DNA of 64,000 nucleotides from an uncultured Chromatiales bacterium (GTDB lineage Bacteria > Bacteroidota > Ignavibacteria > SZUA-365): assembly GCA_964635845.1 (NCBI GenBank), contig CAZWNO010000004.1:821-64820 (forward strand). Direction: 5' to 3'. Each line of letters starts with the position of its first letter. The stretch's first letter is position 1. A program made the position numbers and the translations under genes. The notes under the pieces are model-generated. The model had not been told where the DNA came from. It made no database searches and worked only from the letters and a program-made list of their open reading frames with translations. Positions 16,899 through 33,656 of this stretch are shown piece by piece.

Positions 16899-16934
16899 CG
16901 TACCGGCTGCGAACTCAACACGTGAGGCATCGGC

Positions 16935-17015
16935 GTGAGGGAAAATGTGATTGAGGGAATATTCTCCGCACTGGACGCCGTCAAGCCCACTGGGCTGGGG
17001 ATGGCGGGGTAACTC
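16935..17015. repeat. ~80-bp dispersed repeat, copy A (agggaaaatgtgattgagggaatattc..gacgccgtcaagccc..tgggctggggatggcggggt)
   Basis: About 90% identical to 19575..19655. Both copies lie just after a + strand gene. Confidence 0.75.
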
Positions 17016-17137
17016 CTGCCCCTCGATACATTCGTCTTCGCTTCGCGACTCCGCCTTACTCGGCGTGATGGTACCATGAGGCGTCTGTGATGATGTATCA
17101 AGACGCACGTACGAGAAATAGGGAATACAATCCCTTC

Positions 17138-17166
17138 TTGACAAAGGTATCTGGAATCTGTATAAT
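17138..17166 (+). promoter_or_regulatory. Consensus sigma70-type promoter (TTGACA, 17-bp spacer, TATAAT)
   Basis: ttgaca at 17138..17143, spacer aaggtatctggaatctg, tataat at 17161..17166. About 100 nt upstream of the ATG at 17274. The leader contains hairpins gaacc-gcaaga-ggttc and ggctc-gtgat-gagcc. Confidence 0.6.
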
Positions 17167-17273
17167 GGGCGCAAGCAGTCATTACAGTTCGACCCAGGAG
17201 GAACCGCAAGAGGTTCGGAGCTTCTGTTGATAGCAATCAAGGCTCGTGATGAGCCTGGGAGTAAAAGACTGAA

Positions 17274-18428
17274 ATGAAAATGAAGCGGTATCCGGCTGGA
17301 CCGGTCGCTCTCTTCGCGATCGCGGCGATGGTTGCCCTCGTGGCATGCTCGAATTCCAGCGAGCCCCCGCTCCCGCCCGATCCCGGAATCGTCGACACCA
17401 CGACGCATGACTACAGTTGGGAGTACCATTTCATCGATGCCCCGCGGGGTGAAATCAATTTCCTGCGCGACATCCAGATCGTGGACGAGGACGATATCTG
17501 GTTTGTCGGGGAGATCTATACCGACACGCTGAATTACAGTATCCCGCATCGCAAAACCATCAGATTCCTTAACACAATCCATTGGAATGGAGCAACTCTT
17601 TCAGGTTATTCGTATGAATCGATCGTAGCAAGCGGGGAGGTGGAGAGGGCTAATTTCTATGCCTTGGCCAATCGGCGACGCACAAAGTATTTAATCTCGG
17701 GTCTTGGCATTACCGAATTGAACGACGATACGATTGTGTTTCACGACATGCGGATTTTGAATGGGAAGTGGTACGGATTTGAAATGGCGAGTACCGAAGC
17801 CAGTGGGAAGATGTTCATTTACGGACTCCCCGGATTCCTGGCAGAACTGGTGCAGGCGGGGCCGCTCCAACCTATCGGGATTCGGCAGATTCCGCTCCCC
17901 ACTCAAGCTCCGGTGCGTGCATTCGTCGAAGTAAACGAGCAGGAATACTTCATCGGCGTGTATTCCGACGAGACGGGGGAACATCACTGGTATCACTCCA
18001 AGGATGGAATGCTGCTCGAGTATTCGTTCTCCGCGGTCGGCGTTTACAGCCGCGATTATTGTACTGCGCTGTGGGCGAGCGATGACAAGTTGTTCGCGAC
18101 CAGTACGCCCTTCCTGTTCGTCCAGTCGCTCGCGGATACATCGGACAGGGTGTTCGTCAATTTTCTGGACGATCTCGGACGGTCATCGGTAGGACGCATC
18201 GAGAAGATGACGGGGCGCGCGAACAATGACATTTTTTTCGTCGGCCAAGTGTCGACGGTAATGCATTACAACGGAAAGACTTTCCACGTTTATGACGAAA
18301 TAGCCGAAAGGGCATCGATGAGCCGTTTCTGGGATGTCACAATCGCAGGTGACAAGGTGTACATCGTCGGTGTCCGGGAATTTGGAGGACAATATCAAGC
18401 TGTACTTATAATCGGTACGAAACAATAG
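17274..18428 (+). CDS. Hypothetical lipoprotein
   Basis: Signal peptide and lipobox AMVALVAC|SNS. No recognisable catalytic motif. Confidence 0.55.
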   Translation: MKMKRYPAGPVALFAIAAMVALVACSNSSEPPLPPDPGIVDTTTHDYSWEYHFIDAPRGEINFLRDIQIVDEDDIWFVGEIYTDTLNYSIPHRKTIRFLNTIHWNGATLSGYSYESIVASGEVERANFYALANRRRTKYLISGLGITELNDDTIVFHDMRILNGKWYGFEMASTEASGKMFIYGLPGFLAELVQAGPLQPIGIRQIPLPTQAPVRAFVEVNEQEYFIGVYSDETGEHHWYHSKDGMLLEYSFSAVGVYSRDYCTALWASDDKLFATSTPFLFVQSLADTSDRVFVNFLDDLGRSSVGRIEKMTGRANNDIFFVGQVSTVMHYNGKTFHVYDEIAERASMSRFWDVTIAGDKVYIVGVREFGGQYQAVLIIGTKQ

Positions 18429-18440
18429 ACGCTTCTCAGT

Positions 18441-19508
18441 TTGAGCCCTAGAACGAACGTCATATTGCTTGCGGCATTGGTACTGATACTCCCGACGGCC
18501 TGCGAGGACGAGCACGGACTCGCTCCACCTGACGCTCCTTGCGCTTCGTGCGATACCTGCAACAACCTGAAACTGCCGCCCACAGGTCCTTGGTACCAGG
18601 ATGGCGAAATCGTTCCCGCCGTGCAGGACACGTATCGGGGGAAAATGTCGCCGGACGGAAGGTATCTCGCGTTTCTCGGGGGCAATTCGGATTACAGGAA
18701 CGACGAAAGGACCTATCCGATCAGCGGACTGGTGGTGCAGGATGTGGCTACGAAGCGCGTGCTGCACTTCTTTCTGGGATTTTACAGCTGGTTTTCCTGG
18801 CATCCCGATGCGAAGCATCTGTATTATGTAGAGAGTTCGATACTTCGCAGATTGAATGTACAAACAGGCGAAAACGTTCGCTACGACAGCCTTGGGCATT
18901 GGGAAGGGGTGGAGGTGACTGGTTCCGGTAGGTTCATCTATTTATCAGGCTATAGAGACGGAAATGCCAGGAATGGTATCTGGCGATGCAAGGAAGACGG
19001 ATCCGAAATTTTCTTCGTAACGGATGATGCAGTGTTCAAATGGAACTACGTGACGGCCGATGATTCGCTGCTGTGCGCATTGAATCTCGGAAAAACTGCT
19101 CATCCCGAAGGCGTATACTTTCTGAACGTCTTGACCGGATCCATGCGGTTCATAGGGATTCCCTCTCTCCATGAACAATTTTACGCATCAAGTCACCGGG
19201 GATTGTTATCGAGAGATGGAAAGTTGATCCTGTTCCAACCATATGTGGAGGACAAGAAACTCAACGACGGATATGCCGATGCGGGAGTCTGGCTACTCGA
19301 TCTCGAAAGCCTGCGTTTGCGGCAGGTGTTGCCGAAGCACCTCCATTACCGGTTCCGCTTTCGGAATCCACAATGGTGCACGGACCGAACCTTCATCGCC
19401 GATTGGCTGTGTGTGAAGGACTCAACGGTATCCTTGTATGAATACTCGCTGGACGGCCGTCCGCTGAGAAGATTGACGGACAGGAATCTCCGATTCTGGG
19501 AGAAATAA
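18441..19508 (+). CDS. Hypothetical lipoprotein with TolB-like beta-propeller repeats
   Basis: Lipobox LILPTAC. Repeated SPDGRYLAF and DGKLILF blades. Confidence 0.5.
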   Translation: MSPRTNVILLAALVLILPTACEDEHGLAPPDAPCASCDTCNNLKLPPTGPWYQDGEIVPAVQDTYRGKMSPDGRYLAFLGGNSDYRNDERTYPISGLVVQDVATKRVLHFFLGFYSWFSWHPDAKHLYYVESSILRRLNVQTGENVRYDSLGHWEGVEVTGSGRFIYLSGYRDGNARNGIWRCKEDGSEIFFVTDDAVFKWNYVTADDSLLCALNLGKTAHPEGVYFLNVLTGSMRFIGIPSLHEQFYASSHRGLLSRDGKLILFQPYVEDKKLNDGYADAGVWLLDLESLRLRQVLPKHLHYRFRFRNPQWCTDRTFIADWLCVKDSTVSLYEYSLDGRPLRRLTDRNLRFWEK

Positions 19509-19574
19509 TCCGGAAGCGGAAATCAATCTACCAAGTCTCGTGATGAGTCTGTCCGGGGGTCCCGACGAACTCTT

Positions 19575-19655
19575 CGCCGGCAGGGAAAATGTGATTGAGG
19601 GAATATTCATCGCGCTCGACGCCGTCAAGCCCCATGGGCTGGGGATGGCGGGGTG
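19575..19655. repeat. ~80-bp dispersed repeat, copy B
   Basis: See copy A at 16935..17015. Confidence 0.75.
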
Positions 19656-19863
19656 AACGTGCATGTTGCCGGCGCGCCATGGATCATCCGCGATTATGCT
19701 TGTTTTGAGTGTGCGGCTTTTAATAAAATCGGGTATCTTGATCGGAATGCAAACGGTACGTCGAGGCGCGTCGCCCGGCAGGCGGTGAAGCCCGAAATTC
19801 TCGGTAAACACAAGTGCAGCGTCACGCAAAAGCTCTTACACGCGCTGGAGGTATCCTGACCTC

Positions 19864-20142
19864 ATGAATGACATGATTCTTTACACCACCGAAGACGGCC
19901 GAAGCCAGATCAAACTGCGGGCGGCTCGGCAGACGGTATGGCTTACCCAGCGAGAAATATCGGAGTTGTTTGATGTGAGCGTGGACAACATCGGCCTGCA
20001 TCTCAAGAACATTTATGAAGATGGAGAATTGGTTCGCGAGGCAACTGCCGAGGAATCCTCGGTAATTCAAATCGAGGGCAACCGTAAGGTGCGCCGCTCC
20101 TCGATACAGACGTCGCGTCGGCTACTCAGGATGAAGGTTTGA
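19864..20142 (+). pseudogene. RhuM-family protein, N-terminal fragment only (92 codons; full-length members are ~340 aa)
   Basis: ILYTTEDGRSQIKLRAARQTVWLTQREISELFDVSVDNIGLHLKNIYEDGEL matches the conserved RhuM N-terminus. The reading frame ends before the core domain. Confidence 0.55.
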
Positions 20143-20151
20143 TTCCATCTG

Positions 20152-20820
20152 TCATTTGTCATCTGTCATATTTCCGTTCTCGGTATGACGGGTGATGACG
20201 GCTTTCCTCTCGGTGAATGTATTCAGTTCCTCGTGGATCCTCGCGCGGAGGGAGCGGCGGACGCGAATGGTGTAGCGCGTGTCGTCGAGATAGGCGCGGT
20301 CGAGCACCTCGACGCCGTGCAGTTCGAGGACGTGATGTACCTGGCTGGTGACGTCGTAGGGGAAGGTGATGAGGAAGGTTTCGGTGAGATGGCGGCGTTC
20401 GATCACGCAGCGGGAGAGCACGGCGTCGGCGGCGTCGGTGTAGGCGCGGGCGAGTCCACCCACGCCGAGCTTCGTGCCGCCGAAGTAGCGCACGACCACG
20501 ATGCCGACGTCGGTCAGTCCGAGACGGTCGATGGCGCCGAGAATGCGCCTGCCCGCGGTGCCGCTCGGCTCGCCGTCGTCGCTGTAGCGGAATTCCATAC
20601 CTTCATATCCGATGCGCCAGGCGAAGCAGTGATGCGTCGCGTTGTAATGCTCCCGGCGCAGGGCATCGAGCGCGGTGGTGAACGTCCCCGCGTCGCCGCA
20701 GGGGATCGCGTAGGAAAGGAAGCGCGATCCGACTATCTTTATTTCCGTATCCTCGCGTCCGGCGACGGTCAGGAAGGAATCATCCGGGGAACTGTGGTGT
20801 TGCTGGTCTGGAGGCGGCAC
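20152..20820 (-). CDS. yigZ: IMPACT/YigZ family protein (UPF0029)
   Basis: GSRFLSYAIP..HHCFAWRIG..DDGEPSGTAGRRIL..VVVVRYFGGTKLGVGGLARAY. Confidence 0.8.
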   Translation of the reverse strand: MPPPDQQHHSSPDDSFLTVAGREDTEIKIVGSRFLSYAIPCGDAGTFTTALDALRREHYNATHHCFAWRIGYEGMEFRYSDDGEPSGTAGRRILGAIDRLGLTDVGIVVVRYFGGTKLGVGGLARAYTDAADAVLSRCVIERRHLTETFLITFPYDVTSQVHHVLELHGVEVLDRAYLDDTRYTIRVRRSLRARIHEELNTFTERKAVITRHTENGNMTDDK

Positions 20821-20890
20821 TTTTGTTCTTGCGGCTGTCTCGTTGCGATGCTTCGACTAAGGTACTGAATCCACGGGAGGTCTTCCAACC

Positions 20891-22012
20891 ATGAAAATCG
20901 GCATTACCTGTTATCCCACCTACGGCGGCAGCGGCGTCGTCGCGACGGAACTGGGCCTCGCGCTCGCGGACCGTGGCCACGAGGTGCACTTCATCACCTA
21001 TGACCGGCCGTTCCGCCTCGATCATTTCCATGACCGCGTGTACTTCCACGGCGTCGAGATCAGCGCGTACCCGCTGATCGAATTCGACCTGTACACGCTC
21101 GCGCTGACGAGCAAGCTCGTCGAGGTCGTGCGGTTCGAAAAGCTCGACATCCTCCACATGCACTACGCGATCCCGCACGCGGTCAGCGCCTACCTCGCCC
21201 GGCAGATCCTGGGTGTCGACAACATCAAGACCGTCACCACGCTGCACGGGACGGATTCGACGCTCGTGGGACTCGAACCATCCTTTCTCCCGCTCATGCG
21301 CTTCGCGCTGCAGCATAGCGACGGCGTCACGGCGGTGTCGCGCTTCCTCCGCGACAAGACGCTGAGCACCTATCAGCTCGACGTGGATATCGAGGCCATC
21401 CCGAACTTCATAGACACGGAAGTCTACGCGCCGCGCGAGTCCTGCCGCTACCGTGAACTCTTCGCTCCGGACGGCCAAAAGGTGATCGTCCATACGTCGA
21501 ATTTCCGCCCGGTCAAGCGCGTGCAGGATGTGATCCGCACGTTCGCGAAAGTCCGCGAGCAGATTCCCGCCAGGCTTCTCCTGATCGGCGACGGTCCCGA
21601 TCGAACGGATTGCGAGGTGCTGTCGCGCGAACTGCATGTGCAGGACGACGTCCGTTTCCTCGGCAAGCAGGACGCGCTCGTCGACATCCTCACCGCCTCC
21701 GATCTGTTCATGCTGCCGAGCCAGTCCGAGAGTTTCGGACTGTCCGCCCTCGAAGCCATGAGCTGTGGACTGCCCGTCATTTCCACCAGCATCGGCGGCA
21801 TTCCGGAAGTGAATCTCCACGCGGAAACCGGCTATATCGCCGAGATCGGAGACGTCGACCGCATGGCCCGCTACGCCGTCGAACTGCTCTCGAACGAGGC
21901 GCGGTACGCCATGTTCTCGAAGGCCGCGCGCCGCCGCGCGGTGGAGGTCTTCGACAAGCACATCATCGTCCCCCGGTACGAAGCATACTACGAGCGTATC
22001 CTCGGGCGGTAA
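20891..22012 (+). CDS. bshA: N-acetyl-alpha-D-glucosaminyl L-malate synthase (bacillithiol biosynthesis glycosyltransferase), GT4
   Basis: MKIGITCYPTYGGSGVVATELGLALADRGHEVHFIT..HYAIPHA..TTLHGTD..GKQD..ESFGL..EAM is collinear with B. subtilis BshA. Confidence 0.8.
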   Translation: MKIGITCYPTYGGSGVVATELGLALADRGHEVHFITYDRPFRLDHFHDRVYFHGVEISAYPLIEFDLYTLALTSKLVEVVRFEKLDILHMHYAIPHAVSAYLARQILGVDNIKTVTTLHGTDSTLVGLEPSFLPLMRFALQHSDGVTAVSRFLRDKTLSTYQLDVDIEAIPNFIDTEVYAPRESCRYRELFAPDGQKVIVHTSNFRPVKRVQDVIRTFAKVREQIPARLLLIGDGPDRTDCEVLSRELHVQDDVRFLGKQDALVDILTASDLFMLPSQSESFGLSALEAMSCGLPVISTSIGGIPEVNLHAETGYIAEIGDVDRMARYAVELLSNEARYAMFSKAARRRAVEVFDKHIIVPRYEAYYERILGR

Positions 22013-22542
22013 GCCATCTGGAGTCAGGAACAAGGACTTTCCGCACCTTCACACTGTTGCCGAAGAAGTGATGGATCGGGTGGTGATTACTTTCGGTGAC
22101 GGTCTGGTCCGGGGCCAGGGAGCGGCCGAATGACCCCAAGGTAGAGCGTGAGATTATTGCCATGAGCCGGAGCCCGGGAAAGACGACCACAGGGATAATC
22201 CCGGCTGCGGCACATAATGGATTCCGTTTGTCGCAATTAGAACAGATGCGAATCATAAAAAGATAAAATTATTTATTTAAAGGTAAACAGCAGGGAAACG
22301 ATACGCATCGCCGTATGTATGTCCATGGAATTGCACGACTTAGAGAGCAAGAATGTCCGGGTGGGCGAGAACACTTTATCAGACGAACAAGTAGGGAATT
22401 GATTTCAGGTATTGACAAAGTCTGGGCAGGCTGATTATCATTACACCAATAAGATCCGTAACACCCCTTCTCGGAGGACAGGTCGAGTGCCCGGAGAATC
22501 CCCCGGAAACAGACTGAGCTTTTGCGGTTCACCGTACGCCTG

Positions 22543-22730
22543 AACCGTCGAGCCGCGAGAACCGTCGAGCCGTGAGAACTGTCGAGCCGCGAGAACTGTC
22601 GAGGCATGAGAACCGTCGAGCTGCGAGAACTGTCGAGCCGCGAGAACTGTCGAGGCATAAGAACCGTCGAGCTGCGAGAACTGTCGAGCCGCGAGAACTG
22701 TCGAGCCGCGAGAACTGTCGAGCCGCGTGA
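22543..22730. repeat. Tandem repeat, 17-bp unit gagaacYgtcgagcYgc, about 11 copies, in the 5' leader of the gene at 22754
   Basis: Direct reading. Unit length is not a multiple of 3. The ORFs 22269..22802, 22441..22782 and 22529..22786 are repeat artefacts. Confidence 0.85.
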
Positions 22731-22753
22731 TCCAATGCAAAGGAAAAACAAGT

Positions 22754-24862
22754 ATGCAGCACAAAATATCGACGAAGCGCAACCACGTAATAATTTTAAC
22801 AACGCTGTTGATGCTTATTCTGGTAGTTGGTGCGCCGCGTCTAAATGCTCAATGGAATGCAGTTGAGCTTGCGTATGGCGGCAGTGTTCTGGATGCGATT
22901 CAGAGTACCGATAAAGGCATGTATATATTGACCGAAAGGGGCGGTATTTATACGCTTGATAAAGAAGGAACTACATGGATATATTTATGTAAATACGATA
23001 TTACAGATCCTATTGCTCTGCATTTATTCTCGGCGAATCCGAGGGCTATATACTGTTTTAGGGAAAGCATATATATATACGATCGAAAGCTGGGTATCTG
23101 GAGCGACCTGGAAACGAATAAGGTAAGCGCACTACCGGTAAAATCTGCATCAGTACTTTCAGATAGCATCATTATTTTTACGGATGGCCAGGAGGTCTTC
23201 AAGTCAACGAACTCTGGCGCATCCTGGGAAGTTGTTTTACACCATGCGCCTCTCGGATTAGACTGGATTTCGGCAATTACAGTGAACGCGAACAATACTG
23301 TCTACCTTACAGCGGAAGACACGACGTATATTTCGAACGATGGAGCTGCGAGTTGGAAAAAAATATATAATAATATGAAATTATACATTAACATCGCATA
23401 TAGGGTAAGTCGCACGATATTCCCTGTCGGAACGACGTCAATATGCAAGATTACGGAAAATGGAATTTTATTGTACTCCGATATAGACGAGGAGTGGGCC
23501 GGTGTATTTAATACTGCGGGTATGAATGCCAGACCTACGATCTTCGCAATAGACAGTTCGATATTCTGTTTTCAACGAATTTCCGACGAATTCATGATTT
23601 ATCGCAGCACTGATTGGGGTAGATCCTGGGATTCAACAGCTATCGCGTCCTTCGCTTTCGCTTTTCCGTACATCTTCGGTAGCAACGAGAGAAATCTGTA
23701 TGTAACGGATTATAGAAATTGTGTGGTAAGCATAAATGATGGGAATGGCAGTATGGCATATATGATGACTGGAATATCGGAACTTTCTACAAGATTAATC
23801 GCCGCGGAGAACCGAAGAGTACACACAAGGAGCAGCACTTTGGATGTTCATAGGGGATCTTCTGATAGCGCATTTCTTTATAATATCACAGGGCCGTGGC
23901 CTGCACGGGATATATACCTCACAACAGAAGGAGACGTTATCAGATTGGAGACGTCTATCATAGAGAAAACTACAGACGGGGGAGAAAAATGGATTGATGT
24001 GGGTGAGATTCAAAACTGGGACGCATATTTTGAAAAAACGGAAAGCGCGATTTATCTGGCAGGCAGGTATGGGGTATATTCGCTCAATACTAGAAATAAA
24101 AATATAAGAGATCTGTCGGATTCGGCGACATATCGTGTTGCCGTGAATTCACAGAAGGTTGTTACTGCAGTCACATACAGCTCGTATATTTTGATCATTC
24201 GTGAAGCGGAGGAGATATATAAAATTGATGCCAGGAATATCAATGAGTTGGTTGACGACATTTTGATATTTGACGATAATACACTGCTTTTGGCGGCTGG
24301 TGAAGAGTTGTACAGAGGTTATGGCGAAATGGGGACTTGTGTACGATTGGAGGAAGAAACATTTGATGCAACAGAAAAAATGTTGTTGCATGAGTCAGGA
24401 ATGATTTTTTCGTTGTCAAAGCAAGGCGGAGTGCAATATTCATCAGACACCGGGCGCAGCTGGATTGCAATTGACATTTCGAGTCTGGGAGCGGAAGTGA
24501 GAGATCTGGCCATTGATGATATGTTTTTATATGTATGCACCAGGGGCGCAGGGGTACATATGATGAATATTTCCAGCCTCATATTAGATGTTGATGAAGA
24601 CGCATATGATAAGAGGACGGAAAATATATTGGTATATCCTAACCCGGCGTCGACGCAGTTGACAATCCTCGGTATCAATGATTGCGATTCGCGGATAACC
24701 ATTACTTTATCAGATATAATGGGTCGTAAATTATATGTTAGGAATACCGGTAATTGTTCACCAGGTACAATCAACGTTGACAGCATGATCCCTGGTATAT
24801 ACATCATAACGATAGAGAAGAATAATTATCCCGTTGGCTCGCAGTTGGTAATAATTGAATAA
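22754..24862 (+). CDS. Secreted BNR/Asp-box repeat tandem beta-propeller protein (GH74/sortilin-like fold) with a T9SS C-terminal domain
   Basis: Signal peptide MQHKISTKRNHVIILTTLLMLILVVGAPRLNAQ. Repeated SxDxGxxW blocks (STNSGASWEV, SNDGAASWKK, STDWGRSWDS, TTDGGEKW). C-terminal YPNPASTQLTIL..PGIYIITIE. GC is about 40%. Confidence 0.65.
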   Translation: MQHKISTKRNHVIILTTLLMLILVVGAPRLNAQWNAVELAYGGSVLDAIQSTDKGMYILTERGGIYTLDKEGTTWIYLCKYDITDPIALHLFSANPRAIYCFRESIYIYDRKLGIWSDLETNKVSALPVKSASVLSDSIIIFTDGQEVFKSTNSGASWEVVLHHAPLGLDWISAITVNANNTVYLTAEDTTYISNDGAASWKKIYNNMKLYINIAYRVSRTIFPVGTTSICKITENGILLYSDIDEEWAGVFNTAGMNARPTIFAIDSSIFCFQRISDEFMIYRSTDWGRSWDSTAIASFAFAFPYIFGSNERNLYVTDYRNCVVSINDGNGSMAYMMTGISELSTRLIAAENRRVHTRSSTLDVHRGSSDSAFLYNITGPWPARDIYLTTEGDVIRLETSIIEKTTDGGEKWIDVGEIQNWDAYFEKTESAIYLAGRYGVYSLNTRNKNIRDLSDSATYRVAVNSQKVVTAVTYSSYILIIREAEEIYKIDARNINELVDDILIFDDNTLLLAAGEELYRGYGEMGTCVRLEEETFDATEKMLLHESGMIFSLSKQGGVQYSSDTGRSWIAIDISSLGAEVRDLAIDDMFLYVCTRGAGVHMMNISSLILDVDEDAYDKRTENILVYPNPASTQLTILGINDCDSRITITLSDIMGRKLYVRNTGNCSPGTINVDSMIPGIYIITIEKNNYPVGSQLVIIE

Positions 24863-24945
24863 TCGAGCGCAATATCGTTTGTGTCACAGCCTCGAAATCA
24901 GTATTACGGATCAAATATGAGCACGCCATGGCTCGAATAGAACAA

Positions 24946-25407
24946 TTCGTTGGCAAACATCACGCGCTGATTCTTCACGTCCGCCACGACACTGACGTAG
25001 CGATGAACCCGGCTACGCGACATCTCATCGATCGCGATCGCCGTCACATCGTCAAAATCCTCGCGCTCCCGCGTACGTCCAACGTGGTGGTCAAGTATGC
25101 ACTACAGACGCGTGTCACTTTCCCGCACCTGTCGCGCGATGGCAGCGACCGGCATCTGCGGCTCCATGCTCATGACCAGGGCTTCGAAGAGCAATGTGAA
25201 ACCACTGCTCGTCCGCGCCCAAGGGACATGGACATGCAAGACGCCACATCGTTCGCAAATAAATCGGGGAACGCGGGCATGGAGGTAGCAGACATGTTGG
25301 AAGAAGTCAATATGATGCCATTGTTTCTCGACCGTGTCATGCTGCGGAAGGTCCGCAGCAGCACAGATCGGACAGATGAACAGGCGGTCCACCGGGAAGT
25401 CCAGCAA
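24946..25407 (-). pseudogene. ISL3-family transposase remnant A (N-terminal ~150 codons including the zinc finger; C-terminal DDE part absent)
   Basis: MLDFPVDRLFICPICAAADLPQHDTVEKQWHHIDFFQ..RCGVLHVHVPWARTSSGFTLLFEALVMSM matches the ISL3 Tnp N-terminus. About 85% identical to 28505..28900. Interrupted by a stop. Confidence 0.7.
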
Positions 25408-25651
25408 AAGATCGAGACAAGACTTATCAGCAGGGAATTCACTGTGCTTGCAGAACCAGGATGGTGTCAGTCCAAGAGCATCGGCGAAGAGCGTTTTGGT
25501 AGGAGAAAGTATGGGTTGATTCGCGCTGTGAAAGATGCCCGAAACCTGCGCAAATCAGGCCATTCACGCTATGCTATCCACGCGAAACAGAGAGGAGCCA
25601 GCGCTGTCCTAGACAGCGCCGTAGTCAGGCAATATTATTACATAACACAAT

Positions 25652-27757
25652 ATGCTATATAGAATGAATACGAAAATGCTATTATTAGGAAGTATTTTAC
25701 TAATGCTGATTGTAAGCGGCCAGCGTAGCTTTTCACAAGAGAATTGGAAATGGGTAAATCCGGAACTCACCGGACGTGCATTATTTGATGTATGCAGTGC
25801 CAGTGACAGCGTTATTATAATAGTAGGTCAGGACGGCGAAATACTTCGCTCCAGAGATGGTGGAAGGACATGGCAGAATATTGAAACGGCTGCAATTGAA
25901 GACATCACATCGGTATCGTTTTGCGATAATATGCATGGGATCCTTGTTGGTAAGCAAGGACTGGTTATGTCGACCGAGGATGGAGGTCTTACCTGGAACA
26001 TGAGAGAGTCTATGGTCACTTGGGATTTACAGGCTGTCGCCACTCGAAATGCGAATGTTATTGCTGCTGGTGTTAATGGTACCATTACAAGATCGACAAA
26101 TTACGGAATGGACTGGGTTAATATCTCTTTGATGACAATAGATGATATAACAGGAATCGATTTCATTGATGATACAACTATAATAATGGTAGGTTTATCT
26201 GGATTAATCAAGCTATCAACGGATTTCGGAAAAGGATGGGTAGCCATCCAGCCCCCAGTCGAAAGGGATTTTTTTTCTGTCGCATTTTCTGATGAAAAGA
26301 CAGGAATTATCGGCGGCTCATATGGATTACTCGGTACGACTGATGGAGGCATATCCTGGTTCATAATAGAAGACGAAGTATTAAAAAGAATAAATAGTGT
26401 TTCCGATGCAGGTGACGGCAATTTCATAGCTGTTGGAGTTGTTGGTGCTATAAAAATGGGTAATATGAGTATTTCGAGTTGGCGAGAGATTAGTGAATGG
26501 GATGATGTCGATCTAACTGGAGTTAAGTACGTAAATGATAGTATTATTGTATGCGTCGGATTCTATGGTGAGATACTTGTTTCGCGTAATGGAGGTGAGA
26601 GTTGGGCAAGAGGAAATAAAGGAGTCAGATCGAGACTAAGAGACATTACTTTGTTCGAGTCTTACTCGGGTTGCATCGTTGGTAATGACGGTACCGTGAT
26701 CATAACCGATGATGATGGCGAGACATGGGTTCCCATTGATGCAGGTATTGCATGGAATTTGAAGGCGGTAGAGTATGTTGGAAATGATGGATTATTTGCC
26801 TCTGGAACGCAAGGCATTATCAGGTCGAATGATGCGGGGTTAACCTGGAGCGATGTTCTTTTGGGCTCGGAAGAAAGTATTAATAGTATATTTTTTACCG
26901 ATATGGAGGCAGGCTATGCGGTGGGGGACAATGGTGCTATGATACGGACGATCGATGGCGGATTGTCGTGGGTTAGGATGGGTACGAATTTAAACCAAAG
27001 TCTACATGATATATACTTTAAAAGTAAGGATACTGGTGTACTTGTGGGTAATTATGGAATTATCGAGATCACGTATAATGGTGGTGACACTTGGAACAGC
27101 ATTGGAGATGAGCTCGAAGATATTCACTTGACGTCTGCGGTAATAAGTGAGGAGGGAATTGTGGTAGCAGTTGGACGGGATTCGCGAGTATGTATATCTC
27201 ATGATTATGGTGCAAGTTGGGACTTTCAAGATATACGTGGTGTATCTGTGATGCAAAAAGTTATCATTCTCGCGGATAATAGCTATGCAATATGTACCAC
27301 ATTAGGAAAAGTATTCCGTTCAATTAATTTAGATGGCGAATGGCAAGACATGAAGACGGGAATACGAAATACATTACATTCGCTTGCGTGTAATTCGTCT
27401 GGTTATTTGTACGCTGTCGGAGAAGGTGGTACGATTGTCAGAACAAATACAAAGATATTGGAAATAGAGGACATCCCAGGAGATGACTTTTCAGGAGCAG
27501 TTACTGCTGAGGTGTATCCATTCCCAATAGTAGCTGACAAAGTCCGGATCCGACTACCGAAAATCGTAGTGAATGGAATAGCAACAATATTTATACATGA
27601 CCTTGCCGGCCGACTGATTTGGCGATGTGTGGCAACTTTCGATGGATATGGCGGGCTGGAAGCGGAAATAAACATCCCGAATTTGAAACCAGGGATATAT
27701 TATTCAAGAATATATGTTGATAATAAAAACTATTTTGCAAAAATGATTGTCGAATGA
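25652..27757 (+). CDS. Secreted BNR/Asp-box repeat tandem beta-propeller protein (Ycf48/GH74-like) with a T9SS C-terminal domain, paralogue of 22754..24862
   Basis: At least 11 S/TxDGGxTW blades (SRDGGRTWQNIE, STEDGGLTWNM, TTDGGISWFII, SRNGGESWARG, TIDGGLSWVRMG and others). Signal peptide. C-terminal KPGIYYSRIYVDNKNYFAKMIVE. Confidence 0.65.
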   Translation: MLYRMNTKMLLLGSILLMLIVSGQRSFSQENWKWVNPELTGRALFDVCSASDSVIIIVGQDGEILRSRDGGRTWQNIETAAIEDITSVSFCDNMHGILVGKQGLVMSTEDGGLTWNMRESMVTWDLQAVATRNANVIAAGVNGTITRSTNYGMDWVNISLMTIDDITGIDFIDDTTIIMVGLSGLIKLSTDFGKGWVAIQPPVERDFFSVAFSDEKTGIIGGSYGLLGTTDGGISWFIIEDEVLKRINSVSDAGDGNFIAVGVVGAIKMGNMSISSWREISEWDDVDLTGVKYVNDSIIVCVGFYGEILVSRNGGESWARGNKGVRSRLRDITLFESYSGCIVGNDGTVIITDDDGETWVPIDAGIAWNLKAVEYVGNDGLFASGTQGIIRSNDAGLTWSDVLLGSEESINSIFFTDMEAGYAVGDNGAMIRTIDGGLSWVRMGTNLNQSLHDIYFKSKDTGVLVGNYGIIEITYNGGDTWNSIGDELEDIHLTSAVISEEGIVVAVGRDSRVCISHDYGASWDFQDIRGVSVMQKVIILADNSYAICTTLGKVFRSINLDGEWQDMKTGIRNTLHSLACNSSGYLYAVGEGGTIVRTNTKILEIEDIPGDDFSGAVTAEVYPFPIVADKVRIRLPKIVVNGIATIFIHDLAGRLIWRCVATFDGYGGLEAEINIPNLKPGIYYSRIYVDNKNYFAKMIVE

Positions 27758-28155
27758 GCGCTCATAGCTCTGACATGATGTGTTGAATTGAGCGTCGTCG
27801 ATTTAGGATGTAATATCGATGCAGTTTTGCTGCAAAATAGCGATTAACACGCAAAATATCGATCAGAGCCTTGCCGCGCCCCTCTCTGTCAGGATAGTTG
27901 ACCTTGCGCTGTGAAGTCAGAACTACATCAGTAGCGACGTCAAGTTGCACCTGTGATAAGGTTGGGCCCCTTGATATCGCCGATCAAACAGAGGTATTAA
28001 ACAGGTCTTAGCTGCATCTTTCAAGAGCAGGTGTGTTGAGCGTCAGGAGAAAAGTCGGAAGGCGTATTCGGTCAGGTACGAACGGTTAAGACGAACGTAA
28101 GTCAACCATCGAAGAAGTATCGAGAGCAGCATTCGCCGTCGAAACCGGGATTTAG

Positions 28156-28900
28156 TCATTGTCCCGGGACAAGATGGGAGGGAGCCTGAGTTCTTTTCCA
28201 TTGACACGCGGCATGAAAGTGGCGTGAGAATCGTTCAGGCGCTGGTACGGAACATGGGAATCTGCATACCGATGTCAAGTCAGCCATCCAAGCGGCAATC
28301 CTGTGAGGATCTGAAAATAAAAAGAGGTATGCAGAGGGGGACCGGTCGAAGGTGATTTCCGCATCCGGCAGAGACTCCGCCACTCCAGCGACGAAGGCCG
28401 GCGACATGTCCATGCTGACATGCTTGATCGTGTGAGCCGTGCCGCCATGCGCCTCGAAGTCCGCGGCAAACCGCTCGATGACGTTCTGTCCTTTCCTTTC
28501 GGTGGCAAACAACATGCGCCGCTTCTTCACGTCCGCCACGACACTGACATAGCGATGGCCCAGGCGACGCGACGTTTCATCGATCGCGATCGCCGTCACG
28601 CCGGCAAAATCCTCGCGCTCCCGCGCACGTCCAACATGGTGGTCAAGGATGCGGCACGGACGCGTGTCACTTTCCCGCACCTGTCGCGCGATGGCAGCGA
28701 CCGGCATCTGCGGCTCCATGCTCATGACCAGGGCTTCGAAGAGCAATGTGAAACCACTGCTCGTCCGCGCCCAAGGGACATGGACATGCAAGACGCCACT
28801 GTGCTCGCTACGAATTAAGGGAACGCCGGCATGGGGGTAGCAGACATGTTGGAATAAGTTCATATGACGCGATTATTTCTCGACCGTGTCATGCAGGGAA
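28156..28900 (-). pseudogene. ISL3-family transposase remnant B (internal ~215 codons; frameshifted at the 5' end, truncated at the 3' end)
   Basis: GVLHVHVPWARTSSGFTLLFEALVMSMEPQMPVAAIARQV..TAIAIDETSRRLGHRYVSVVAD..RRMLFATERKG matches the ISL3 Tnp, including the start of the DDE domain. Same orientation as remnant A. Confidence 0.7.
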
Positions 28901-29059
28901 TATCAGCAATGGTCGAAGGCGGTCGGAAGTCGAGACATGCCGGCGTATCGAGCCACATTCCGTGCCTTTCACAGCCCTTCGATACGGTCGCCGAGGCGAC
29001 CTATTCGGGCAGACGCACTGCTGCCAACAGCCCGCTACGTCGGGTCTGCGACAAACGGC

Positions 29060-29210
29060 CAACAACCATAAGCTTAAGGCTTAAAGCTTAAAGCCTACAG
29101 CCTACAGCTTACAGCTTACAGCCTACAGCCTACAGCTTACAGCCTACAGCCAAAAGCCCAAAGCCAACGGCCAACTGCCAACTGCCAACTGCCAAAAGCC
29201 AACTGCCATC
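29060..29210. repeat. Simple-sequence region of hexamer tandem repeats (gcttaa / agccta / cagctt / ccaact variants)
   Basis: Direct reading. An inverted short copy lies at 6810..6830. Confidence 0.8.
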
Positions 29211-29326
29211 CTCCCCCTACCTTGTAAGGGGACGGCGAATACGGTATTTTGCCGTGACTTGCTTTATTCGGCGTCCCGCGCCTAACTTGAATATTGGTGC
29301 ATCGTTAACGCAGAACTGAACGTTTC

Positions 29327-31846
29327 GTGAATCCACGCCCATTCATCACGCTTCCGCTCCTCCTGACGGCCGTACTCCTCCTGCAGGGCTGCGCGGTCTG
29401 GGAATTCGTCGACACGCGCTGGCAGAATGCGACAGGGTACTTCAACACGTATTACAACGCCGCGAAGCTCTACGACGAAGCGGAGGCGGAGATCGAGAAG
29501 AATCAGGCCAGCCGGACCATCGATCCGAACCAGGGATCGGTGGAAATGGAGCCCGCGATGGCGGATGGAGTCCCGGGCGAGGAATCGGACGTGCCCAAGG
29601 AAAAGATGCATCGCCAGATCGCGATGATGGAAACCGGCGCGCCTTCGACCGCGATCATGAAACTGGACAAGGTGATCGAAAAGGGATCCCGCATCCTTGT
29701 CAACTATCCGAAAAGCAAGTGGGTCGACAACGCCCTGCTGCTCATCGGGAAGAGCTACTATCACAAGTCAGAGGCCCTGCGCGCGGAGCGGAAATTCCAG
29801 GAATTGCTCGACAGGTACCCCGAGAGCAGCCTCGTTCCCGAAGCCATCCTCTGGCTGGGGAAAACCTACGTGCGGCTGGAAAAATACGAGACCGCGGAAG
29901 GCCTGCTCGACCGCGCGATCGAGGAAGCGGTGCGCGAAGGCGAACCCGATATCGCGGCCGCAGCCTATTTCGAACTCGGGAAAATGTACCTGCTTCAGGA
30001 CAACCGCGCCGAAGCGGTGAAGAAATACGAGCAGGCCGTCGACTTCGCGAGCGACGAGGACCGGCGGATGCAGATCCAGCTCGCCCTCGCGCGCGAATAC
30101 GAACGGCTCGGCGAAAAGGAGAAGGCGGCGAAAGCCTACCGGGACATCTTCAGGCTGGATCCGAGCACCGAGCTGGCATTCATCGCGGAACTGAATTACG
30201 CGAAACTCTCGCGTGAACTCGGGGATCTCGACGAGGCCAGCAACACGCTGATCAACATGCTCGACAATCCCCTCTATCTCGACTACGACGGGCAGATCCA
30301 GCTCGAGATCGGCAACCTGTACTACGCCTACCACAAGCGCTATGCGCTGGCCGGCGATACGCTGGCACGCGATGCGTTCGCGGCCGCCATGGACCAGTAC
30401 AGCTTCGTCGACACGACCTTCAAGGGAAAGGAAGAAGCGGCGGATGCATCCTTCGCGAAGGGACGGATTTACGAAGAGGACATCAAGGATTACGACAACG
30501 CGTTCCAGAACTACAACAACGCCAAGCTGGCGTTTCCGGGTGCGGCGTCCGCGCGGCTTTCCACCCATAAGGCGAAGGTCTTCGGAGAATACCGCAAACT
30601 GCGGAACCAGATCAGCATGAAGGACACGACGCTGTTCTTCGTGCTCAATCCCGACACGCTGCGGCTGCGCGATTCGCTTCGCGTCATCTCCGATTCGCTC
30701 GACCGCGAACGCCGCAAGGCCGAAGGACTCGATGAGAAGCTGATGACGGAGGAGCAGCGGATGGCCGAGCGCTTCCGCCGCCGCCGGCCGCACGGACGCA
30801 ACACGGGCCGTATCAATCCATGGCTGCGGGAAACCGAGAAACAGCAGGTGGCGATGGCGGCCGGCCTGAAGGCCACCGAACAGGCCGTCGCGGTCTCGGG
30901 TCCGGAATACCGGCGCATCAATCTCCGCCAGACGGATCCCGACTCGCTGCGTACCGTGCTCGCCGAACTCTATATGGAAATGGGATGGCAGATGTACGAC
31001 CAGATAGGGAACATCGACTCCGCCCGCCACTACTATCAGAAGGCGCTCGACAACAGGCTCTCCGATTCGCTGCGTCCCCAGGCCGTCTATACGATGGCCG
31101 CCATCGAGCGGAAGGCAGGCAACGAGAGCGAAGCCGTCGCGCTGGAGGACCGCCTGATCCGTGATTATCCCTTCAGCCGCTATGCGCATGGGATCATGCA
31201 GCTGCGCGGCATCCCTCTCCCCAAGGATTCGACCTCTCTCGCGATCGAAGCGTACGAGCAGGCGGCGCGTGTACTCGAACGGGGCGACCGCGAAACCGGT
31301 GTCACACTGATGCGGGCGGTGATGCAGGATTTCCCCGATAGTGATCAGGCGCTGCGGGCGAAACTTGCCATCGCGATGCTCTACGAAGAATATCGCGGCG
31401 ACGAAGCCCTCGCCATGTACAAGGAGATGGTGGCGGAGCATCCCGATTCCCGTTACAGCAAGCGGGGGAAAGAGATCCTCGCGGCGATCGAGAATTTCGA
31501 GAAGGATGCCGTTCGGCGGCAGAAGGAAGCGGAAGCGAAGGCGGAAGCGAATCGTATCGCGGAGGAGGAGCGGAAGCGCAAGGAGGCGCGCTTCCAAAAT
31601 CCGCTTCTGGACGAAGAACTGAAAGTCATGCGCGACTCCGTCCGCTCGCGGGAGCCGAAGATCGATCCCTCGCGCGACAAGGATTTCCCTCTCCGCCTGC
31701 CGGGCGAGGATCCCGTGCGCGACACCACGGAGGCGAAGCCGCTCTTCGTTCCGGACAGGAATCCCGGGAGCATCCGTCAGCCGGGAACGATTCCCGGAGG
31801 CGACACGCTCCGGCGACTCCCCCCACCCCAAAAGCTCGAGAAATGA
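29327..31846 (+). CDS. Tetratricopeptide-repeat lipoprotein with a Lys/Glu-rich C-terminal region
   Basis: Lipobox LLLQGC. Multiple TPR-like 34-aa helical repeats (YFNTYYNAAKLYDEAE..). C-terminal charged low-complexity segment. Confidence 0.6.
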   Translation: MNPRPFITLPLLLTAVLLLQGCAVWEFVDTRWQNATGYFNTYYNAAKLYDEAEAEIEKNQASRTIDPNQGSVEMEPAMADGVPGEESDVPKEKMHRQIAMMETGAPSTAIMKLDKVIEKGSRILVNYPKSKWVDNALLLIGKSYYHKSEALRAERKFQELLDRYPESSLVPEAILWLGKTYVRLEKYETAEGLLDRAIEEAVREGEPDIAAAAYFELGKMYLLQDNRAEAVKKYEQAVDFASDEDRRMQIQLALAREYERLGEKEKAAKAYRDIFRLDPSTELAFIAELNYAKLSRELGDLDEASNTLINMLDNPLYLDYDGQIQLEIGNLYYAYHKRYALAGDTLARDAFAAAMDQYSFVDTTFKGKEEAADASFAKGRIYEEDIKDYDNAFQNYNNAKLAFPGAASARLSTHKAKVFGEYRKLRNQISMKDTTLFFVLNPDTLRLRDSLRVISDSLDRERRKAEGLDEKLMTEEQRMAERFRRRRPHGRNTGRINPWLRETEKQQVAMAAGLKATEQAVAVSGPEYRRINLRQTDPDSLRTVLAELYMEMGWQMYDQIGNIDSARHYYQKALDNRLSDSLRPQAVYTMAAIERKAGNESEAVALEDRLIRDYPFSRYAHGIMQLRGIPLPKDSTSLAIEAYEQAARVLERGDRETGVTLMRAVMQDFPDSDQALRAKLAIAMLYEEYRGDEALAMYKEMVAEHPDSRYSKRGKEILAAIENFEKDAVRRQKEAEAKAEANRIAEEERKRKEARFQNPLLDEELKVMRDSVRSREPKIDPSRDKDFPLRLPGEDPVRDTTEAKPLFVPDRNPGSIRQPGTIPGGDTLRRLPPPQKLEK

Positions 31847-31850
31847 CCAC

Positions 31851-32702
31851 ATGCCAGTGACCAACGCAGATCCGCCGGAGATCAGCGCCGACCCGCCGGC
31901 AGTCAACGCCGATCCGCCGGCAGTCAACGCCGACCTGCGGGTGACGGCGATTGAAGCGATCGCGGAAGACACCTGGGCGCTGCGTTTCCGCAGTCCGGAA
32001 CTCGCGGCGCGGCTGCGGCCGGGACAGTTTCTCAACATCCGCACCAGCGATCAGCTCGATCCTCTGCTGCGCCGTCCGTACAGCATTTCCGATGTGATCG
32101 GGGACGAATGCGAGATCCTGTTCTCCCTCGTGGGGAAGGGCACGCACGCCCTCTCGCACAAACAGCCCGGTGATCATATCGGAGTCCTGGGTCCGCTGGG
32201 CAACACCTTCGGTTACGCGAAGTCCTTCGGCACGGCCCTGATCGTGGCGGGCGGCATCGGCGTCGCGCCGTTTCCCTTTCTGACGAAAGAACTGCGCAAG
32301 CGCGAAATTCCGTTCATCACCTTTCTCGGAGCGCGCAGTGCGGCACGCGTGGTCTCGCGCGGACTCGCCAGTCGGCACATCGCAACCGACGATGGCAGCA
32401 TGGGATTCCACGGGACGGTGGTCGCCGCGCTCGGGGAATACCTCGATGCGCATCCGGTCGATGGTCCGATGATCTTCGCCTGCGGTCCGAATCCCATGCT
32501 GCGGGCAGTCCAGCAGTTCGCCCATGAACGCGGGATCGCGTGCGAGCTTTCGCTCGAATCGGAAATGGCCTGCGGCATCGGCATCTGCCAGGGCTGTCCG
32601 GTCGAACGCCATCAGGGCAAGCGCAAATATGCGCTGGTCTGCACCGAGGGACCCTGCTTCGATTCGCACGACATCATCTTTCACGGGCATCACCACGCAT
32701 GA
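31851..32702 (+). CDS. pyrK: Dihydroorotate dehydrogenase electron-transfer subunit
   Basis: LRRPYSISD (FAD site), GPLGNTF, ALIVAGGIGVAPF, FACGPNPML. C-terminal CGIGICQGCPV..C is the 2Fe-2S cluster motif. An alternative in-frame GTG start at 31941 would put the 21-bp x3 repeat (ADPPAVN x3) in the leader. Confidence 0.8.
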   Translation: MPVTNADPPEISADPPAVNADPPAVNADLRVTAIEAIAEDTWALRFRSPELAARLRPGQFLNIRTSDQLDPLLRRPYSISDVIGDECEILFSLVGKGTHALSHKQPGDHIGVLGPLGNTFGYAKSFGTALIVAGGIGVAPFPFLTKELRKREIPFITFLGARSAARVVSRGLASRHIATDDGSMGFHGTVVAALGEYLDAHPVDGPMIFACGPNPMLRAVQQFAHERGIACELSLESEMACGIGICQGCPVERHQGKRKYALVCTEGPCFDSHDIIFHGHHHA

Positions 32703-33646: not shown

Positions 33647-33656
33647 AAGGAATCGG

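Follow-up and report, generated by a model that had tools for sequence, protein, structure and literature searches.

In an uncultured, high-GC (~61%) Ignavibacteria/Kapabacteria-like member of Bacteroidota, the interval between bshA and a gene for a TPR protein contains a lineage-specific insertion of foreign, AT-rich DNA. Within the window (the whole 64,000-nt stretch of DNA analysed here) it extends from 22013 to ~28930, ~6.9 kb, and carries two intact genes for predicted surface-exported beta-propeller proteins as well as three mobile-element fragments inactivated by deletions. Horizontal acquisition of the region is supported, and we regard it as an ordinary genomic island and not as a new kind of system. 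Taken as a whole, the reading that we favor, and consider probable, is that of a foreign island with two surface-propeller genes and dead mobile-element fragments, whose proteins would have a non-catalytic binding function and whose parts would have arrived stepwise with the assistance of insertion sequences. The data show the insertion itself, its foreign composition, the domain make-up of the two proteins and the structure of the remnants, whereas secretion in this host, binding and the route of insertion are inferred.

Both flanks are native host genes on the forward strand: on the left bshA, encoding a GT4 glycosyltransferase (20891..22012; Pfam Glyco_transf_4/Glycos_transf_1, JGI cluster members named BshA), and on the right the gene for an 839-aa protein with TPR Pfam matches (29327..31846). 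The left border, 22013, lies directly 3' of the bshA stop codon. For the empty site we used three relatives at graded distances: L003/L004 (94.5–96% nucleotide identity in the bshA region), L005 (BshA 89% identical at the amino acid level) and L006 (BshA 71%). L003 and L004 have simply bshA, 254 bp and the TPR gene, and the adjacency of bshA and the 839-aa TPR gene is also seen, without the island, in L005 and L006. Composition sets the insert apart as well: 2-kb windows outside the island average a GC of 0.609 (sd 0.033; host ~0.61) versus 0.419 for gene 1 and 0.415 for gene 2 (z ~ -5.8 against these windows), and GC3 is 0.431 and 0.355, respectively, versus 0.76–0.88 in flanking host genes (0.845 in bshA). 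An earlier sequence-only reading had proposed a GC drop and an acquired island at 22100-28900, and had held that the same genes at the same locus in relatives would speak against an island; the locus is empty in L003–L006, and both proposals stand with the extent corrected to the borders given above. Its description of the acquisition as old is not supported, since GC3 shows no amelioration and the left flank has a dS of only 0.13 relative to the empty-site relative L003 (bshA, ~96% nucleotide identity).

The left arm of the island (22013..22541, GC 0.50) is non-coding, with short ORFs only, none of them real-looking; it has no counterpart in L003 and contains a sigma-70-like site, TTGACA-18-TATCAT, at 22412-22441. 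Next to it a 17-bp unit (GAACTGTCGAGCCGCGA) is repeated 11 times in tandem (22542..22727, GC 0.63; TRF score 274, 85% matches), and the array ends 27 nt upstream of the gene 1 ATG. Similar short-period arrays are common in the intergenic spacers of the host, and a two-unit (34-nt) stretch of this one found no exact match in JGI metagenomes. On the other side the native bshA-TPR spacer resumes (28970..29326): 28970-29026 aligns to L003 11181-11240 with a score of 55 (shuffles, 26 +/- 4.6), and the window from 29175 onward aligns to L003 from 11235 onward. A heptamer array within this spacer (29057-29208; ~17–20 copies of AGCCTAC/AGCTTAC/AGCCAAC by TRF) has only ~5 copies in L003. Similarity to this nearest relative steps down across the island from ~96% on the left to ~85% on the right, where the TPR gene shows 85.8% nucleotide identity and a dS of 0.65. 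The tandem arrays at both island edges and this step in similarity had been overlooked.

Gene 1 (22754..24862, forward strand) encodes 702 aa, or 711 aa from a GTG at 22727. In its product a signal peptide precedes a divergent tandem beta-propeller, which contains 4 canonical Asp-boxes and matches Sortilin-Vps10 weakly, and the tail is a T9SS type-A CTD (nt 24632-24853; PF18962, 38.3 bits, cut-off 27; TIGR04183, 32.9 bits, cut-off 23). Among 1.84 billion representatives 3651 relatives were found at E <= 1e-3, the best being 29% identical, and none except gene 1 itself scored below 1e-30. The AF2 model is all-beta and of low confidence (pLDDT 62). Gene 2 (25664..27757, forward strand; 697 aa, or 701 aa from an ATG at 25652) encodes a signal peptide, a pair of Ycf48-like Asp-box propellers with 7 blades each, matching PSII_BNR (E = 1.2e-35), Sortilin-Vps10 (4e-21) and BNR, and a T9SS type-A CTD (nt 27512-27751) that scores just at the cut-offs (PF18962, 27.1 bits against 27; TIGR04183, 23.2 bits against 23). 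There are 11 canonical Asp-boxes in its 14 blades, which average ~41 residues, so that the two propellers span ~570 aa. Its AF2 model (pLDDT 89.2, pTM 0.80) starts with a helix at the N terminus, continues with regular short beta-strands that fit 14 blades, and ends in an all-beta domain. The best relatives of the two proteins are only 24–30% identical. Both ORFs are intact, the chance of a stop-free ORF at this composition being ~1e-21 to 1e-22, and the solved T9SS CTDs 8glk_D and 8glj_D were matched. The two ~700-aa ORFs and the T9SS tails of both are thus as first described; at least 10 SxDGGxTW blades had been claimed for each protein, which applies to gene 2 but not to gene 1. Calling the genes paralogous was too strong: BLASTP gives 23% local identity at E = 2e-4, while their profiles align end to end (hhalign E = 1e-80, 14% identity). 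The two are remote homologues with a common superfamily and architecture and not a recent duplication.

The mobile-element fragments comprise two ISL3 remnants and part of a group II intron. ISL3-A (24946..25597, reverse strand; Pfam Zn_ribbon_ISL3 and HTH_Tnp_ISL3) corresponds to IS nt 1 to ~650, running from the left IS terminus through the 5' UTR, Zn-ribbon and HTH into the beginning of the DDE domain. Its 3' half is deleted, and the remaining coding sequence lacks a start codon and is interrupted by one in-frame stop. The fragment is 75% identical in nucleotides to the IS in L088 from the first base of that IS (L088 361 = window 25597), and the L088/L090 comparison gives the same IS boundary. 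ISL3-B (28342..28900, reverse strand; Pfam HTH_Tnp_ISL3 and DDE_Tnp_ISL3 positions 1-83/240) is an internal piece, IS nt ~249-808, aligning to L088 609-1168: it consists of a degenerate Zn-ribbon, the HTH and the first third of the DDE domain, with an in-frame stop and both IS ends missing. In tblastn, full-length transposases cover 25527-24946 and 28896-28342, respectively. Two ISL3 remnants in the same orientation and differently truncated had been recognized before; their identity, put at ~85%, is actually 90% (364/406, including a 141-nt perfectly identical core), and the bounds change, as A extends to 25597 with the IS terminus and B starts at 28342, 28156-28341 not being ISL3. The remnants have a GC of 0.55 and 0.60. 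The terminal sequence CTCTTCGCTGTTTCG... is common to the remnant and its ~1.3-kb relatives in the ISL3 family, from which the two copies differ in being truncated pseudogenes with no active copy known; no intact copy of this element is on record, the best relative being 73% identical in amino acids.

The third fragment, the 5' remnant of a group II intron (RNA domains I to IV; 27955..28341, forward strand), had been overlooked. The full-length D1-D4 model RF01999 (clan CL00102) matches 27958-28077 with 54.5 bits (gathering 36; E = 5e-9), and 27955-28356 aligns at 67% identity with a Salmonella plasmid intron, in the part immediately preceding ltrA, the homology ending before ltrA itself. Unlike bacterial group II introns, this one retains only a 5' RNA part, truncated at the ISL3-B junction: a reverse transcriptase/maturase ORF and domains V/VI are absent, and a search for the catalytic domain V gave no match even at E <= 10. 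Since all three fragments are inactivated by deletions, the island is no longer mobile.

Could the low-GC block be something other than an insertion in this lineage? An insertion and a deletion are inseparable from the empty site alone, and the block might be ancestral and deleted in the relatives; it is, however, absent from all three relatives at graded distances, and a GC3 of 0.36–0.43 versus 0.8 is incompatible with long residence, making this explanation extremely unlikely. Alternatively, low-GC segments of another organism in the metagenome might have been joined to the host contig through repeats during assembly. The sequence is known only from one deposited contig of 82,481 nt and from short Logan contigs, which are 100% identical to it over 12124-22603, 25279-28370 and 29121-36074. 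Only the deposited 82-kb contig spans the junctions 22604-25278 and 28371-29120, intact gene 1 is not on record in Logan assemblies, and these independent short-read contigs break exactly at the 17-mer array, the ISL3 copies and the heptamer array (two of them, L085 and L086, start at 29121, inside the last). Yet L002 continues from bshA through the left arm into the 17-mer array, 100% identical up to 22603. The array copies abutting gene 1 are near-identical to the left-hand ones, so that in a chimera both genomes would have had to carry this high-GC array. L001, 100% identical over 25279-28370, joins gene 2 to both of the higher-GC ISL3 pieces on one contig. Two samples contain the Logan contig with gene 2, and the TPR flank was seen in SRR8925735 and SRR14117730, perhaps the same two. 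On balance we judge a chimera to be very improbable.

How the DNA arrived is conjectural, as there is no target-site duplication (no direct repeat of at least 8 nt at the island borders) and neither an integrase nor a tRNA. Two ISL3 remnants in direct orientation and 90% identical flank gene 2; the retained terminus of ISL3-A is only 54 nt from the start of gene 2, and the end of ISL3-B falls within ~30–70 nt of the right island border. This could suggest a decayed composite transposon, as proposed from the sequence, in which the two copies mobilized gene 2 as a unit and then eroded. However, both outer ends required for transposition and the inner end of ISL3-B are missing, the borders have no such repeat, and the ISL3 bracket leaves out gene 1 and the left arm, which are just as foreign. 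Moreover, a 10% divergence between copies would be unusual for a young composite element, and no intact copy of this IS has been recorded. We therefore consider a composite transposon possible but doubtful. Stepwise, IS-assisted insertion is the most economical reading: the route may have been transposition by ISL3 or a Campbell-type crossover of two ISL3 copies that had diverged, with the 141-nt identical core as a candidate crossover or conversion tract, and deletional decay would have followed insertion.

The family profile of the propeller proteins matches Ycf48 over the whole propeller at E = 1.6e-44, and by sequence the family is Ycf48-like and not GH74. Among solved structures, the closest in sequence is Ycf48/HCF136, the photosystem II assembly factor (PDB 2xbg, 5oj5, 8am5), which consists of one 7-bladed Asp-box propeller and acts by binding, not catalysis; the proteins here have two propellers and a T9SS export tail. 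No photosystem genes occur in the window. Ycf48 is a lumenal lipoprotein of oxygenic phototrophs. GH74-type glycoside hydrolases had been raised earlier as a possibility. A role of both proteins as secreted hydrolases of GH74 or another Asp-box type that break down polysaccharide would agree with several observations: in Foldseek the gene 2 model aligns to many GH74 structures (E ~1e-17, TM ~0.53), there are sub-threshold matches to the NCBIfam 'F510_1955 family glycosylhydrolase', and GH74 xyloglucanases (PDB 2cn2, 5fkq, 6p2n) are likewise tandem 7+7 Asp-box propellers of similar overall size (PMC2716378). But the match to GH74 (C. thermocellum Xgh74A) is partial and, at E = 1e-21, far weaker than that to Ycf48, and in an alignment of 48 sequences (~25% identity) no D/E column besides the Asp-box aspartates is conserved at 70% or more, leaving the family without a conserved acidic pair. 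The Asp-boxes are structural, not catalytic (PMC2716378). The blades here are also shorter and more regular, with canonical Asp-boxes in 11/14 (gene 2) versus 9/14 in GH74 (PMC2716378), and at ~41 residues they leave no room for the long loops from which the GH74 cleft is built. Finally, no carbohydrate-active genes or PUL lie nearby. A hydrolase of this type is thus quite unlikely, and binding propellers delivered to the cell surface, also put forward before, are kept as the best functional reading.

Sec would export each cargo protein to the periplasm, with signal peptidase I cutting before a Gln; the T9SS translocon would recognize the CTD and carry the protein across the outer membrane, and a PorU-type sortase would remove the CTD, leaving the cargo surface-attached or released. 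The compact propellers at the surface may then bind a ligand, a glycan or a protein, without catalytic activity. Secretion of both proteins in this host is likewise predicted from their domains, there being no T9SS machinery genes within the 64-kb window, and the cargo genes come from one or more low-GC donors, which very probably had a T9SS. PorZ of Porphyromonas gingivalis (PDB 5m11; PMC5121618, PMC8545088) likewise combines two beta-propellers with a T9SS CTD that follows them. The gene 1 model has PorZ as its top Foldseek match, and the family profile also matches the PorZ CTD; however, the TM is only 0.24 on a low-confidence model, the propellers lack sequence similarity, and PorZ belongs to the core of the secretion system and is single-copy, as opposed to the foreign accessory genes here. 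The closest known group is that of YCF48-related proteins of Bacteroidota with a T9SS type-A sorting domain (PF14870 and PF18962), for which we found no member with a tested function in the literature. The domain set of gene 2, its ~700 aa and its 14-blade periodicity are common to hundreds of these proteins, and gene 1 aligns with them end to end at the profile level, having lost most Asp-boxes; identities reach at most 30% for gene 2 and 29% for gene 1. A comparable arrangement is found in L092, a genome of 42% GC, where two adjacent ~700-aa T9SS double propellers adjoin a Mu-like prophage.

The two large genes of the island differ sharply from their surroundings in composition. Gene 1 and gene 2 have GC contents of 0.419 and 0.415 (z ~ -5.8 relative to 2-kb windows outside the island) against a host background of 0.609 (sd 0.033, minimum 0.52), and their GC3 values are 0.43 and 0.355, whereas uvrD, bshA, a TPR gene and other neighbours lie at 0.76–0.88. 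Gene 1 runs from 22727 or 22754 to 24862 (711 or 702 aa) and gene 2 from 25652 or 25664 to 27757 (701 or 697 aa). Since about 700 stop-free codons would arise by chance with p ~1e-21 to 1e-22 at the island's base composition, both are real genes. Related contigs supply the empty site: in L003 (84 kb) and L004, bshA (window 20891–22012, + strand) is followed by 254 bp and then by the same 839-aa TPR gene (29327–31846, +). L003 9175–11125 aligns on window 20071–22014 at 94.5% nucleotide identity and L003 11272–13916 on 29222–31866 at 85.8%, and bshA also adjoins the TPR gene in the more distant L005 and L006 (BshA 89% and 71% aa identity). The foreign block starts at 22013, directly after the bshA stop codon, and native spacer homology returns at 28970–29026 (alignment score 55, against 26 +/- 4.6 for shuffled sequence), so the block measures ~6.9 kb. 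No direct repeat of >= 8 nt is common to the two borders, the window holds no tRNA, and within the island there is neither an integrase domain nor an Rfam match beyond a group II intron; the ORFs of the left arm (22013–22541) look spurious. The empty site in L003–L006 and the deviant GC3 establish the region as a genomic island acquired horizontally: an ordinary one, recently acquired and now immobile. A sequence-only reading of this DNA was therefore right about the GC trough and the island, but its proposals of GH74 enzymes and a composite transposon were not supported. Judging from the relatives of BshA, which has cluster mates at >= 90% identity in JGI metagenomes, the host would belong near Ignavibacteria, Melioribacteraceae and Kapaibacterium.

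An abrupt change in composition could also come from misassembly. Logan contigs from independent assembly match window 12124–22603, 25279–28370 and 29121–36074 with 100% identity and stop inside a 17-mer array, the ISL3 copies and a heptamer array; because they break there, the junctions at 22604–25278 and 28371–29120 are carried by the deposited contig alone. For a chimera, two genomes would have to share this high-GC 17-mer array, and we consider it unlikely. The proteins of both island genes are on record only in one 82,481-nt NCBI contig and in Logan contigs of SRR8925735. A literature search on the run accession found no papers.

Gene 2 is the better defined of the two proteins. It matches PSII_BNR (1.2e-35), Sortilin-Vps10, BNR and Por_Secre_tail in Pfam, and carries 11 canonical [ST]x[DN]xGxx[WFY] boxes with a period of ~41 residues, the repeated Asp-box/PSII_BNR pattern of a Ycf48-like 7-bladed propeller; the consensus of its family has 14 blades. 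An AlphaFold2 model built with 48 homologues (pLDDT 89.2, pTM 0.80) shows an N-terminal helix, a regular run of short beta-strands that would fit 14 blades, and an all-beta domain at the C-terminus; the solved T9SS CTDs 8glk_D and 8glj_D were matched. For gene 1 the propeller evidence is a weak Sortilin match and 4 canonical Asp-boxes, so that it qualifies as a Ycf48-like or Asp-box propeller only at the profile level, and its AlphaFold2 model is all-beta but of low confidence (pLDDT 62). A search of 1.84 billion representatives gave 3651 relatives for gene 1 at E <= 1e-3, the best of which, self aside, scores 6e-21, with identities of 21–29%. The two proteins themselves are 23% identical in BLASTP (E = 2e-4), while their family profiles align over 661 columns (probability 100%, E = 1.3e-80). 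They share a superfamily and an architecture without being recent paralogues, and the earlier description of them as paralogous is too strong. The figure of at least 10 SxDGGxTW blades per protein is right for gene 2 but not for gene 1. The top Foldseek match of the gene 1 model is PorZ (5m11), which likewise consists of two propellers and a CTD (PMC5121618). We rejected an identification as PorZ (TM 0.24 with a model of pLDDT 62, propellers without sequence match, and no NCBIfam PorZ match); the model points to a likeness in architecture only.

Both proteins end in a T9SS sorting domain at the extreme C-terminus, as had been proposed. Gene 1 scores 38.3 bits for PF18962 (cut-off 27) and 32.9 bits for TIGR04183 (cut-off 23); gene 2, at 27.1 and 23.2 bits, passes the same cut-offs only just. 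A hydrophobic N-terminal helix is predicted at residues 17–35 of gene 1 (numbering from the GTG start) and 4–25 of gene 2, with predicted cleavage motifs, read by eye, of LNA↓Q and SFS↓Q, respectively. Gln thus follows both predicted cleavage sites, at residues ~33–43 of gene 1 (22825–22855) and ~25–30 of gene 2 (25724–25741). A Gln in this position is known as the Bacteroidetes 'Q-rule', and its presence in both proteins is consistent with a Bacteroidota-type donor. None of the T9SS machinery genes (SprA/PorKLMN/PorU/PorV) lies within the 64-kb window. A native 1711-aa protein (56248–61383) with 261-nt internal tandem repeats (58669–59262), weak PKD/HYR matches and a weak FlgD_ig-like C-terminus, though no match to TIGR04183, could itself be a surface or T9SS-type protein of the host.

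We then compared the evidence for an enzyme with that for a binding protein. In a phmmer search with gene 2 alone, the solved relatives are Ycf48 proteins (6.5e-14) and no GH74 structure appears at E <= 0.01. The family profile matches Ycf48 with 155 bits (1.6e-44) over a whole propeller, and C. thermocellum GH74 (2cn2/2cn3) with 80 bits over part of one propeller, so the closest affinity over both propellers is not to GH74. Foldseek lists GH74 structures (TM ~0.53) together with sensor domains of the BT4663 type and eukaryotic tandem WD proteins. GH74 catalysis relies on a conserved Asp pair in the cleft between the propellers (Asp70 and Asp480 in 2CN3). In a 48-sequence homologue alignment of the gene 2 family the acidic columns conserved at >= 70% are the Asp-box aspartates only, which are structural (Quistgaard and Thirup, PMC2716378). 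The 7+7 blades of GH74 enzymes bear 4+5 Asp-boxes and long loops (PMC2716378), whereas the island proteins build both propellers from ~570 residues. Because of the stronger Ycf48 match, the mixed Foldseek result, the purely structural acidic columns and the compact propellers, we read the island proteins as predicted non-catalytic binding propellers, and the GH74 assignment is not supported. Taken together, the island would encode two predicted T9SS-exported double-propeller surface proteins of a known type, from the Ycf48-related family; a literature search for Ycf48 together with type IX secretion found no papers. We also rejected an origin from a phage or a defence system, since PHROGs gave one match of unknown function, in gene 2 (phrog_8700), and PADLOC gave none.

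Gene 2 is flanked by remnants of an ISL3 element. Related elements on contigs L088 and L090 show that the IS is ~1.32 kb long with the left end CTCTTCGCTGTTTCG..., and the loci of the best full-length transposase relatives (P0152, 73%; P0153, 64%) served solely to locate the IS ends. ISL3-A (24946–25597, - strand) comprises IS nt 1 to ~650; it keeps its left terminus at 25597, which lies 54 nt away from the first gene 2 ATG. Its transposase has no start codon, is interrupted by an in-frame stop and ends at about residue 194. ISL3-B (28342–28900, -) is an internal piece, IS nt ~249–808, with a degenerate Zn-ribbon, an in-frame stop and only DDE positions 1–83 of 240. Neither remnant thus encodes a complete transposase (Zn-ribbon, HTH and full DDE), and of the IS ends and 8-bp target duplication only the ISL3-A left terminus is present, all other ends being deleted. 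The remnants had been described correctly as differently truncated and in the same orientation, but their identity is 90% over a 404-nt overlap rather than ~85%. That overlap includes a perfect 141-nt run, which would have a chance of ~1e-4 under a uniform 10% divergence and so suggests a tract of gene conversion or crossover. Outside the run the fragments (24946–25349 and 28498–28900) differ by ~16%. A search for an intact close copy, with a composite ISL3 protein as query against 5.8 billion proteins, found nothing better than 73%, and an exact 49-mer of the identical core had 0 matches in JGI metagenome contigs.

The stretch from gene 2 to ISL3-B holds a third mobile element, overlooked in the earlier reading. 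The group II intron D1–D4 model of Rfam, RF01999, matches at 27958–28077 with 54.5 bits (gathering score 36), and homology to an ltrA-bearing Salmonella plasmid intron covers 27955–28356. This homology stops ~84 nt before the ltrA start of the reference intron, with ISL3-B following directly. The RNA of 5' domains I–IV is therefore represented, but no D5 match was found at E <= 10 within 27700–29400, domain V/VI is missing and no reverse transcriptase was found in the remnant. All three mobile elements (ISL3-A, ISL3-B and the intron remnant) are dead.

How the DNA arrived can be framed in two ways. A composite ISL3 transposon is a possible carrier, and direct orientation and an identical core fit it; however, the required outer ends are absent, the target duplication is missing (the borders being without a repeat of >= 8 nt), and gene 1 lies outside the ISL3 bracket. 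The composite transposon put forward earlier is accordingly not supported. Alternatively, a circular molecule carrying gene 2, the intron and an ISL3 copy could have entered through one crossover with a diverged ISL3 that was already resident; this would account just as well for the direct orientation and the identical core. By either route at least three deletions would have followed, removing the 3' half of ISL3-A, the 3' portion of the intron along with the right portion of ISL3-B, and the ISL3-B left end.

Similarity to the nearest relative changes across the island. Identity to L003 is 93–99% per 200 nt from 17258 to 22014 (bshA dS 0.13), and on the right 76–93% over 29222–34656 (TPR dS 0.65) and 84.7% over 34782–38374. 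As this is a step from ~96% to ~85%, the island lies on a breakpoint of homologous recombination between lineages.

A comparable arrangement is found on contig L092 (GC 0.42; region 1–17320), where a 688-aa gene 2 homologue, a 714-aa Ycf48-like T9SS protein and a C25-peptidase T9SS cargo follow one another in this order and adjoin Mu-like prophage genes (Portal_Mu, Mu Gp36). Tandem propeller pairs in variable regions thus recur at least once, and genomes of L092-like composition are plausible donors. One could go further and see in ~700-aa T9SS double-propeller pairs an exchangeable, fast-diversifying surface cassette among distant FCB-group bacteria, with the 17-bp array and the ISL3 terminus as expression switches. 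The notion of movement draws on the 20-point GC gap here and on the Mu-like prophage neighbour in L092, and that of very fast diversification on the lack of any gene 1 relative above ~30% identity among the 1.84 billion representatives. Such a pattern, if true, would be in keeping with pressure from phages or predators on surface receptors or adhesins, but we regard it as speculative and improbable. The scientific weight of the locus is small: it is a clean, well-bounded and very recent cross-GC transfer into an Ignavibacteria-like lineage with an empty-site control, and it shows that the export tag of T9SS cargo genes moves along with them. It also corrects the record, with predicted Ycf48-like binding propellers in place of GH74, a composite transposon left unproven, and a group II intron remnant added to the mosaic.

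Some further features surround these genes. The 17-bp array and the retained ISL3 terminus sit just upstream of the starts of gene 1 and gene 2, respectively. A sigma-70-like site at 25610–25638 (TAGACA-17-TATTAT) falls within the 54 nt that separate gene 2 from the ISL3-A terminus, and another at 22412–22441 (TTGACA-18-TATCAT) precedes the 17-mer array, ~310 nt ahead of gene 1; such sites occur in the region at 2x the shuffled expectation, an excess that AT-rich DNA would be expected to show. Another variable segment, with an intermediate GC (~0.53), spans 14700–20150 and contains an acetyltransferase, an alpha/beta hydrolase and two tandem paralogous genes (17274–18428 and 18441–19508) with no Pfam match. 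L005 lacks this segment, and there an Impact_N gene and bshA come straight after uvrD; L003 has three copies of the tandem paralogue, and a type I R-M system replaces the left part of the segment. Short-period tandem arrays (units of 7–26 nt) occur at 815–868, 10642–10722, 22542–22727, 29057–29208, 34702–34776, 38410–38542, 39769–39935, 49105–49178 and 52602–52693, and several of these fill gaps between long ORFs, shortly before a start codon. A 34-nt query made of two units from the 17-mer array had 0 matches in JGI metagenome contigs. The heptamer array before the TPR gene has ~17–20 copies here, compared with ~5 in L003.
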